Of a stretch of DNA of 64,000 nucleotides, positions 47,057 to 48,002 are shown one piece after another. Source of the DNA: a phage; the sequence record PZ179882.1; one strand, written 5' to 3'. The position numbers were made by a program, and so were the translations under genes. Each line of letters opens with the position of its first letter. Position 1 is the stretch's first letter. The notes under the pieces were generated by a model. The model did not search any database and was not told where the DNA came from. It worked only from the letters and a program-made list of their open reading frames with translations.

Positions 47057-47132
47057 TGGTCGAGGCAGTAGGGATCGAACCTACGACCTAGGACTTAGAA
47101 GGTCCTTGCTCTTCCTTCTGAGCTATGCCCCG
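47057..47132 (-). tRNA. tRNA-Arg (anticodon UCU)
   Basis: Hand-folded cloverleaf: acceptor CGGGGCA/TGCCTCG, anticodon loop CTTCTAA, T-loop TTCGATC, CCA encoded. Confidence 0.8.
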
Positions 47133-47138
47133 TAATTG

Positions 47139-47211
47139 GGTGACCGATGGGAGTCGAACCCATGACTACGAGAATCACAATCTCGAGTTCTACCAACTGA
47201 ACTACGGCCAC
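47139..47211 (-). tRNA. tRNA-His candidate (anticodon GUG), CCA not encoded
   Basis: Acceptor GTGGCCG/CGGTCAC, anticodon stem CGAGA/TCTCG with loop TTGTGAT, T-loop TTCGACT, discriminator C; the 3' flank is CAA rather than CCA and position -1 is U. Confidence 0.6.
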
Positions 47212-47325
47212 ATTAATACCTACTCCAACAATCAAGATGTCTTCACACGAAATTAAGAGAAGAGTGATCAGTTCAACCCCTATAATCGCGTCAAGTAGAT
47301 ATTAATGTGACAGTTGTCACAAATT

Positions 47326-47400
47326 TGGCGGACGTGATAGGATTCGAACCTATAACCAATCGCTTAACAGGCGATCGCTCTGCCATTGAGCTACACATCC
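47326..47400 (-). tRNA. tRNA-Asn (anticodon GUU)
   Basis: Acceptor GGATGTG/CACGTCC, anticodon loop CTGTTAA, T-loop TTCGAAT, CCA encoded. Confidence 0.7.
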
Positions 47401-47404
47401 AAAT

Positions 47405-47491
47405 TGGTGGGGAGTGATGGAGTCGAACCACCCGAGTCGCAATGACAATGGATTTACAGTCCACACCGCTACCTCTACGGGATAACTCCCC
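47405..47491 (-). tRNA. tRNA-Tyr (anticodon GUA), long variable arm
   Basis: Acceptor GGGGAGT/ACTCCCC, anticodon loop CTGTAAA as in bacterial tRNA-Tyr, 87 nt, CCA encoded. Confidence 0.7.
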
Positions 47492-47503
47492 TAATTCGTA
47501 ATT

Positions 47504-47578
47504 TGGTGGCCCTGGGTGGAATTGAACCACCATCTGGCGATTATGAGTCGCTTGCTTGAACCTTCCAGCTACAGGGCC
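47504..47578 (-). tRNA. tRNA with CAU anticodon (Ile2-type or Met)
   Basis: Acceptor GGCCCTG/CAGGGCC, anticodon stem-loop GCGA-CTCATAA-TCGC resembling lysidine-type tRNA-Ile2; CCA encoded. Confidence 0.7.
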
Positions 47579-47579
47579 T

Positions 47580-47655
47580 TGGTGCTGATTGACGGAATCG
47601 AACCGCCGACCTTCTCATTACAAGTGAGTTGCTCTACCTACTGAGCTAAATCAGC
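47580..47655 (-). tRNA. tRNA-Thr (anticodon UGU)
   Basis: Acceptor GCTGATT/AATCAGC, anticodon loop CTTGTAA, T-loop TTCGATT, CCA encoded. Confidence 0.75.
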
Positions 47656-47660
47656 AAAAC

Positions 47661-47750
47661 TGGCGGAGGCGATAGGATTTGAACCTATGAGTCGCCGGAG
47701 CGACTGCCGGTTTTCAAGACCGGTGCATTAAACCACTCTGCCACGCCTCC
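47661..47750 (-). tRNA. tRNA-Ser (anticodon UGA), long variable arm
   Basis: Acceptor GGAGGCG/CGCCTCC, anticodon stem CCGGT/ACCGG with loop CTTGAAA, 90 nt. Confidence 0.8.
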
Positions 47751-47752
47751 AG

Positions 47753-47826
47753 TCTCCGTGGCAGGATTTGAACCTACGACATTCTGCTCCCAAAGCAGAC
47801 GCTCTACCAAACTGAGCTACACGAAG
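47753..47826 (-). tRNA. tRNA-Pro (anticodon UGG), CCA not encoded
   Basis: Acceptor CTTCGTG/CACGGAG, anticodon loop TTTGGGA; abuts tRNA-Ser, like the classic T4 Pro-Ser dimeric precursor. Confidence 0.75.
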
Positions 47827-47836
47827 TAAATTAAAT

Positions 47837-47910
47837 TGGAGCGGATAATGAGAATCGAACTCACATCATCAGATTGGAAGTCTGAGGTAATACCATTATA
47901 CGATATCCGC
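47837..47910 (-). tRNA. tRNA-Gly (anticodon UCC)
   Basis: Acceptor GCGGATA/TATCCGC, anticodon loop CTTCCAA, T-loop TTCGATT. Confidence 0.75.
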
Positions 47911-47915
47911 AAATT

Positions 47916-48002
47916 TGGTGCGAGAAGTGGGACTCGAACCCACAAGGAAATCATTCCGCAGCATTTTAAGTGCTGTGCCTTTACCAATTTGACCATTCTC
48001 GC
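47916..48002 (-). tRNA. tRNA-Leu (anticodon UAA), long variable arm
   Basis: Acceptor GCGAGAA/TTCTCGC, anticodon stem CAGCA/TGCTG with loop CTTAAAA, 87 nt. Confidence 0.75.

Follow-up and report, generated by a model that had tools for sequence, protein, structure and literature searches.

The tRNA genes of phage T4 are eight in number (Gln, Leu, Gly, Pro, Ser, Thr, Ile, and Arg) and are accompanied in the record (NC_000866) by segB, which lies between the Ile and Arg genes, and by rnaC and rnaD. In T2L, RB1, and RB3, the genes Met(CAU)-Tyr-Asn-Arg are found where T4 has segB (Brok-Volchanskaya et al. 2008, PMC2330249). SegB cuts within tRNA-Asn, in which a 27-bp site was mapped for T2L, and thereby causes this region of ~1250 bp to give way to the T4 version in mixed infections (PMC2330249). 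This study concerns a tRNA island at positions 47057-48002 of a 64,000-nt stretch of phage DNA (sequence record PZ179882.1), the whole of which is referred to as the window. A preliminary description had set the island against a list of eight T4 genes, which agrees with the T4 record, and had judged it to be remodelled. The comparisons presented here show that the island is the ordinary tRNA operon of a large Tequatrovirus subgroup, already known and widely annotated. Less ordinary than the island itself are an unannotated RNA in the spacer between the Asn and His genes and a tRNA-His without an encoded G at position -1, neither of which appears in the preliminary description.

ARAGORN and the Rfam model RF00005 (gathering score of 29 bits) were run over the whole 64-kb window. 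ARAGORN called exactly ten tRNA genes, which occupy 47057-48002 and are all encoded on the minus strand, and all ten passed the RF00005 gathering score, nine of them at 59-74 bits and tRNA-Tyr at 30.2 bits, with no further RF00005 match in the 64 kb. The same ten genes with the same anticodons had been folded by hand in the preliminary description, and the three for which software support had been sought, Tyr, Asn, and His, were each called by ARAGORN and scored above the RF00005 cut-off. The order proposed relative to T4 was likewise borne out by the gene calls, since the CAU tRNA is followed by Tyr, Asn, and His before tRNA-Arg is reached, and neither ARAGORN nor RF00005 detected a tRNA-Gln anywhere in the window. 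The spacing of 1-12 nt given earlier is correct for all neighbours but one; the Asn and His genes are separated by 114 nt (47212-47325). The tRNA-Tyr gene is identical to that of T2 at 86 of 87 positions and to that of T6 at 85 of 87 (98%), and is 68% identical to E. coli tyrV. The tRNAscan score of its ACG-C40 counterpart is 39.13 according to the record annotation. The T6 tRNA-Tyr was seen on a northern blot and shown to be functional (PMC13096335).

A megablast search with a 2.3-kb region matched 1150 phage records, ~38 of which align over its full length at 93-99% identity. In 325 phage records, coverage of the 946-bp island reaches 80% or more, and the Tyr-Asn-spacer-His block is held by 187. 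The same ten tRNAs are annotated in the same order in ACG-C40, UTI-E4, slur03/14, KarlGJung, and others, and many further records (RB5 and RB10 types) carry the same island without His. The islands of ACG-C40, UTI-E4, slur03/14, KarlGJung, phage 107, and other Tequatrovirus members were 96.7-99.4% identical to that of the window. The window is collinear with Escherichia phage vB_EcoM_ACG-C40 (NC_019399, deposited in 2012) over 46348-49985 at 97.5% identity. The two share the ten anticodons and their order, the HNH gene upstream of tRNA-Leu, the open reading frame (ORF) of 116 aa after tRNA-Arg, and the Asn-His spacer. There is essentially no difference from the ACG-C40 type, except that tRNA-His of the window is one C shorter at its 3' terminus and that a 1.2-kb insertion is present downstream, outside the island.

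The preliminary description had regarded the remodelling as noteworthy, provided that an identical gene set was not already standard in the closest known relative. That set was found in ACG-C40 and is standard among the closest relatives, as the 325 records and the arrangement reported for T2L, RB1, and RB3 in 2008 attest; the view of a noteworthy remodelling is therefore not supported. At this locus, T4 is atypical and a poor reference for its own genus. Four genes set the island apart from T4, and its CAU and Arg tRNAs are of different identity, as would be expected if it were a distinctive island, newly remodelled relative to T4 as a special adaptation of the window genome. Such an adaptation is nevertheless highly improbable, since an identical island occurs in many published relatives and its right half has been known from T2L, RB1, and RB3 since 2008. 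In all probability, the island is an ordinary Tequatrovirus tRNA operon, a mosaic formed by recombination and homing-endonuclease traffic rather than a novel remodelling.

The island occupies the slot downstream of the trna.2-4 genes and upstream of rnaD and rnaC, in the manner of the segB-free Tequatrovirus type represented by ACG-C40 and T2. T4 uses the same slot between e.8 and trna.2, and its Leu and Gly genes are identical to those of the window, with Ser and Thr nearly so. It differs in having Gln, in having segB between Ile and Arg, in its non-orthologous Ile and Arg genes, and in lacking Tyr, Asn, and His. T2 (AP018813) resembles the window in its CAU and Asn tRNAs (both 100% identical), Tyr gene, and Arg gene (74/76), in the 116-aa ORF after Arg, in the absence of segB, and in a tRNA-Ser with encoded CCA. 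Unlike the window, T2 has kept Gln, has an ORF at the Thr position, and has Asn only 4 nt from Arg, with neither the RNA element nor tRNA-His. The tRNA-Ser gene of the window is identical to that of T2 at 90/90 positions and to that of T4 over the 87/87 positions of the T4 gene. The CAU, Tyr, Asn, and Arg genes as a group show 97-100% identity to their T2 counterparts and stand in place of the Ile-segB-Arg of T4. The CAU tRNA is identical to the T2 gene labelled Met at 75/75 positions and to T4 tRNA-Ile at just 51/82; tRNA-Arg matches T4 at 51/83 and E. coli argU at 73%. Because the identity is only ~60%, the CAU and Arg tRNAs are not orthologous to the Ile and Arg tRNAs of T4.

As judged from these alignments, the island is a mosaic in which the left half is of T4/T2 type and the right half of T2 type, with a His cassette and an HNH gene in addition. 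Leu-Gly-Pro-Ser-Thr form the portion common to T4 and T2. The CAU tRNA (Ile2-type), Tyr, Asn, Arg, and the 116-aa ORF are common to T2, T4 having segB and different Ile and Arg genes there. A cassette of ~190 nt, made up of the structured RNA and tRNA-His, is situated between Asn and Arg and is also present in Karamvirus, Jiaodavirus, and Gelderlandvirus clusters, and an HNH endonuclease gene has taken the place of tRNA-Gln apart from its first 9 nt. By its identity to T2, the tRNA-Asn gene is also predicted to carry the preferred SegB cleavage site. The tRNA content of T-even phages thus appears to be shuffled by homing endonucleases, with an HNH gene in the former tRNA-Gln and a SegB target in the intact tRNA-Asn.

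The anticodon stem-loop of the CAU tRNA (15 nt, GCGACTCATAATCGC) is exactly that of E. coli ileX, and the acceptor sequence GGCCC/GGGCC is also common to both. The determinants by which TilS recognizes tRNA-Ile2 are the anticodon stem-loop and the acceptor pairs C4-G69 and C5-G68, as in E. coli ileX. Since the anticodon stem-loop and acceptor end match ileX, the gene labelled Met by the software most likely encodes a tRNA of the Ile2 type, which would require lysidine and read AUA.

Two further genes of the island have histories of their own. The tRNA-Pro is a third allele, identical to T4 at 62/75 positions and to T2 at 63/75, and by eye its stem differences preserve pairing; the tRNAs on either side of this divergent gene show 100% identity to T4 and T2. 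The allele suggests a small gene-conversion patch. Homologues of tRNA-Tyr were found at ~95% identity in rV5-like myoviruses (some records of which are labelled Campylobacter phage) and at ~85% in T5-like phages (Bf23). This distribution indicates a probable exchange of tRNA-Tyr between unrelated phage groups.

At the place of tRNA-Gln, the window has a free-standing HNH endonuclease gene. The first 9 nt of tRNA-Gln are retained, as is the sequence located 5' of the T4 tRNA-Gln gene. The ATG of the HNH gene follows four bases (TATT) past this remnant, and the gene ends 6 nt before tRNA-Leu. The Pfam HNH match was weak (17.2 bits versus a cut-off of 21.4), and the ACG-C40 record labels its HNH gene as similar to the T5 tRNA-region endonuclease F-TflIV. 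Because the 9-nt Gln remnant adjoins the HNH gene, the absence of Gln reads as the scar of an endonuclease insertion. The gene was evidently lost by insertion of a free-standing homing-type endonuclease gene and not by selection on the tRNA set.

The 114-nt Asn-His spacer contains a conserved structured element whose 3' end abuts tRNA-His. Compared with T2, ~190 nt comprising the spacer and tRNA-His are inserted between Asn and Arg. This cassette is 92% identical to its Karamvirus counterpart and also occurs in the tRNA clusters of Jiaodavirus and Gelderlandvirus; in most genomes of these three genera, the spacer sits between tRNA-Gln and tRNA-His. The spacer equals the tRNA in its degree of conservation, with Karamvirus copies at 87-92% identity, Jiaodavirus copies at 82%, and Gelderlandvirus copies at 77-79%. 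The element was found in 356 phage records (Tequatrovirus, Karamvirus, Jiaodavirus, and Gelderlandvirus), and none of the 60 of these that were listed annotates it as an RNA. A search of Rfam 15 revealed no family match within 47212-47325 at E <= 1, and nothing relevant to the element, or to small RNAs encoded among the tRNA genes of T4-like phages, was found in a literature search.

RNAalifold predicted a closing stem of 14 bp with two internal hairpins, and a small hairpin (47306-47321) is located at the 5' side of the element. The folding energy of the spacer as RNA was -32.7 kcal/mol (z = -4.36). Among 15 distinct sequences, 97.8% of cells were paired, compared with 36-49% when the partners were slid, and both-sided changes were observed at five helix pairs (29 cells). 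The covariation score was 0.28 versus 0.15 in shuffles and was reached by 0/500 shuffles, a result to be read with the caveat that the independent lineages are few and the alignment was fitted to the model. A covariance model of the element scored 120 bits in the sense orientation and 18.8 bits in antisense, and the RNA was assigned to the tRNA-sense strand because it contains several invariant G-U pairs. Two versions of the inner hairpin occur, unrelated in sequence but alike in size and position. In each version, its apical loop could pair, as judged by eye, with that of the other hairpin (AUCA or UCAUGA versus UGAU or UCAUGA).

The window contains one match to the covariance model, and the T4, T2, and T6 loci contain none. 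STP4-a and one metagenomic contig have the element but no tRNA-His, and in another contig it lies beside a different tRNA. Pattern scans of viral contigs and of a metagenome, in which most metagenome matches were due to chance, returned the same few lineages only, plus one diverged copy beside a long-arm tRNA-Asn. Other identities for the spacer were considered and rejected. A degenerate tRNA received neither an ARAGORN call nor an Rfam tRNA match, even at E <= 1, and a relation to rnaC or rnaD of T4 was dismissed on the covariance model result given above. A sigma-70 promoter was likewise rejected; the hexamer TTGACG has no matching -10 sequence and is not kept in Jiaodavirus, and the promoter scan made no minus-strand call in the spacer.

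A perfect palindrome of the CRP consensus, TGTGA-N6-TCACA, is located at the 5' hairpin just after tRNA-Asn; one copy was found against 0.07 expected, a value reached by 6/100 shuffles. As RNA, it forms the small hairpin 5' of the element, with an equivalent in STP4-a and none in Karamvirus or Jiaodavirus. Together with TTGACG, this palindrome might mean that the spacer acts as DNA instead of as RNA, serving for example as a homing target, a promoter, or a site of the CRP type. That possibility is unlikely. Neither motif is kept in Jiaodavirus, the upstream half of the palindrome is missing in Karamvirus, and no minus-strand promoter was called there. The near-invariant G-U pairs, moreover, would be A-C mismatches on the opposite strand, both-sided changes are seen at five helix pairs, and the proportion of paired cells is 97.8%, compared with 36-49% in the slid controls.

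The closest described counterpart of the spacer RNA is RNA III of phage T5 (NC_005859, 30284-30389, 106 nt), recorded as a "stable RNA with unknown functions," which lies directly 5' of tRNA-His, as does the spacer element, and is of similar length (~100 nt). The T5 RNA has a closing stem of 14-15 bp, the 3' strand of which ends at tRNA-His position -1, and a 4-bp hairpin just before that strand, a layout like that of the window element. The T5 tRNA-His also has U at -1, as in the window. In contrast, the central part of RNA III is longer and folded differently. The covariance model fell exactly on the T5 rnaIII gene, although at a score below significance (9.8 bits, E ~1.9), and the two RNAs are not significantly similar in sequence. 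Among T5-like phages, RNA III copies share 97-100% identity, which leaves too little diversity for a second model, and the Epseptimavirus phages are without RNA III. T5 RNA III has been an orphan for 40 years.

By analogy with T5 RNA III and with the species 1 and 2 RNAs of T4, the spacer element is most likely a stable RNA that would be co-processed with tRNA-His; a cut by RNase P at the 5' terminus of tRNA-His would create the 3' end of the element. The wider proposal, for which we consider the chances evenly balanced, is that the spacer represents a new family of structured small RNAs, with an inner hairpin in two interchangeable versions, present in at least four T4-like genera, coupled to a tRNA-His without G-1, and perhaps the counterpart of T5 RNA III. 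If true, an RNA partner of phage tRNA-His, with a role in processing, identity, or counter-defence, would be common to unrelated enterobacterial phages. The spacer RNA and the U at -1 could together serve as a starting point for studying the "stable RNAs" of the T4 and T5 clusters and the maturation and charging of phage tRNA-His.

The tRNA-His of the window forms a complete cloverleaf with a GUG anticodon and a C73 discriminator. Its anticodon and T stems vary among the four genera, with pairing preserved by eye. Position -1 is T (U in the RNA), not G, in the window and in every T4-like homologue examined, and also in the tRNA-His genes of T5, Epseptimavirus, and Novosibvirus, whereas E. coli hisR encodes G-1. 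The 3' C-run of the window gene (47138-47141) is one C shorter than in six relatives, so that CCA is incompletely encoded; the missing C may reflect genuine variation or an error in sequencing the homopolymer. In bacteria, G-1 is the main identity element for histidyl-tRNA synthetase (HisRS) and pairs with C73 (PMC9976931).

The lack of this encoded identity element (PMC9976931), the shortened CCCC run, and the position of tRNA-Tyr scarcely above the Rfam threshold could be taken to mean that tRNA-His, and possibly tRNA-Tyr, is a decaying or non-functional hitch-hiker in the cluster. We regard decay as improbable, because the tRNA-His cloverleaf is intact in four genera with its stem pairing kept and a score of 65 bits, and because the Tyr orthologue is functional in T6. 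Since the genes of T5-like phages and Novosibvirus likewise have U at -1, and since the T5 record states that tRNA-His with a changed anticodon is an effective suppressor, U at -1 is better understood as a conserved phage feature than as decay.

As an ordinary operon, the cluster would, by analogy with T4, give rise to one precursor transcript containing several tRNAs as well as the stable RNAs rnaD and rnaC, and mature tRNAs would be released from it by host enzymes through RNase P cleavage, 3' trimming, and CCA addition. The tRNAs would then supplement the host supply for codons on which the phage, AT-rich at 35% G+C, relies much more heavily than E. coli. Codon counts from 81 window ORFs, set against general E. 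coli frequencies, gave 1.66x host frequency for Tyr codons and 1.45x for Asn codons. The codons UUA, GGA, CCA, UCA, ACA, AUA, and AGA, read by Leu, Gly, Pro, Ser, Thr, CAU/Ile2, and Arg-UCU, respectively, were used at 1.45-5x the host level. Codon supply, as predicted from these counts, fits nine of the ten tRNAs, all but His. The suggestion in the preliminary description that the tRNA content may track codon usage therefore holds for Tyr and Asn and fails for His, for which codon supply was ruled out because His codons are under-used relative to E. coli.

The tRNAs might also act as the phage's own supply once host tRNAs are destroyed. In the Septu system, PtuAB cuts tRNA-Tyr in its variable arm (Chihara et al. 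2026, PMC13096335). T4 carries no gene for tRNA-Tyr and is sensitive to Septu, T2 is resistant, and an extra T6 tRNA-Tyr rescues infection (PMC13096335). The idea that the island counters host tRNA cleavage, also raised in the preliminary description, thus has experimental support just for T6 tRNA-Tyr against Septu (PMC13096335). With a tRNA-Tyr like that of T6, the phage of the window should resist defences that cleave tRNA-Tyr better than T4 does. The two phages differ in that segB is not located beside Tyr in the window, whose island has no GIY-YIG gene, and because of this the SegB-driven amplification described for T6 would be unavailable in cis.

Several points weigh against the explanation of the island as an ordinary operon of working tRNAs. 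The host frequencies in the codon comparison are general E. coli values, not computed ones, and against these values His codons stand at 0.80x host use. A tRNA-His without encoded G-1 and with incomplete CCA may be a poor HisRS substrate, as far as the gene sequence allows a prediction. The T6 tRNA-Tyr is itself cut by Septu, so that it protects by dosage and not as a resistant tRNA (PMC13096335). Finally, all tRNA functions proposed for the phage of the window are carried over from relatives by analogy.

Tyr, Asn, and His might alternatively be kept mainly as counter-defence spares against tRNA nucleases of the host or of competitors, and not for codon supply. This is possible, but the less probable explanation. 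The anticodons of Tyr, Asn, and His are of the GUN type, are queuosine-modified in the host, and make up three of the four targets of anticodon nucleases of the colicin E5 type; the fourth GUN tRNA, Asp, is also found in Karamvirus and Jiaodavirus clusters. The T6 tRNA-Tyr, 98% identical to the window gene, counters Septu, tRNA-Tyr is a target of both Septu and the retron-Eco7 PtuAB, and the Tyr gene has the homologues in unrelated rV5-like (~95%) and T5-like (~85%) groups mentioned above. A role as spares would also cover His, whose codon use below the host level leaves it unexplained by supply. On the other hand, Tyr and Asn codons are enriched 1.45-1.66x, and supply explains both genes equally well; the link to colicin E5 is a putative one; and we know of no defence nuclease that targets tRNA-Asn or tRNA-His in T-even infection.

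The coordinates of the island genes and of the flanking features are given in Table 1.

Table 1. Features of the tRNA island and its surroundings in the 64,000-nt window.
Feature	Position	Strand	Method or score	Remarks
Terminator-like hairpin and T run, downstream of rnaC	46357..46380	-	Pattern scan	Consensus match only
T4 rnaC homologue (species 1 stable RNA)	46431..46569	-		138/139 identical to T4
T4 rnaD homologue (species 2 stable RNA)	46576..46688	-		97/121 identical to T4
116-aa ORF between tRNA-Arg and rnaD, as in T2	46688..47038	-	phrog_3355, E = 8e-53	111/117 identical to T2 ORF
tRNA-Arg (UCU), T2-type isoacceptor	47057..47132	-	ARAGORN; Rfam 66.1 bits	74/76 identical to T2
tRNA-His (GUG)	47138..47211	-	ARAGORN; Rfam 65.1 bits	77% identical to E. 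coli hisR
Conserved structured RNA element	47212..47321	-	Conservation, folding, covariation	3' end abuts tRNA-His
tRNA-Asn (GUU)	47326..47400	-	ARAGORN; Rfam 74.1 bits	75/75 identical to T2
tRNA-Tyr (GUA), long variable arm	47405..47491	-	ARAGORN; Rfam 30.2 bits	
CAU tRNA, most likely tRNA-Ile2	47504..47578	-	ARAGORN; Rfam 59.9 bits	Software label Met
tRNA-Thr (UGU)	47580..47655	-	ARAGORN; Rfam 72.9 bits	73/76 identical to T4
tRNA-Ser (UGA)	47661..47750	-	ARAGORN; Rfam 62.6 bits	Encoded CCA as in T2
tRNA-Pro (UGG)	47752..47826	-	ARAGORN; Rfam 66.6 bits	CCA not encoded
tRNA-Gly (UCC)	47837..47910	-	ARAGORN; Rfam 65.8 bits	74/74 identical to T4 and T2
tRNA-Leu (UAA)	47916..48002	-	ARAGORN; Rfam 59.3 bits	87/87 identical to T4 and T2
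Free-standing HNH endonuclease gene, 202 aa	48009..48617	-	phrog_14736, E = 6e-124	At the place of tRNA-Gln
tRNA-Gln remnant, first 9 nt (TGGGAATTA)	48622..48630	-	Comparison with T4 Gln gene and its upstream flank	

A Pfam search with the 116-aa ORF returned no match. The divergence of the rnaD homologue from T4 is concentrated in its centre, whereas the adjacent rnaC homologue is identical to T4 at 138/139 positions. The terminator-like hairpin downstream of rnaC is the probable end of the operon. Relative to T4 and ACG-C40, a 1.2-kb insertion was observed at 45134-46347, between the e.8 homologue and rnaC. It contains two tandem paralogous ORFs (45142-45705 and 45831-46304, the latter from an internal ATG), both assigned to phrog_2280, and is flanked by a duplication of ~34 nt (45793-45826 and 46348-46381) that contains the terminator-like hairpin.

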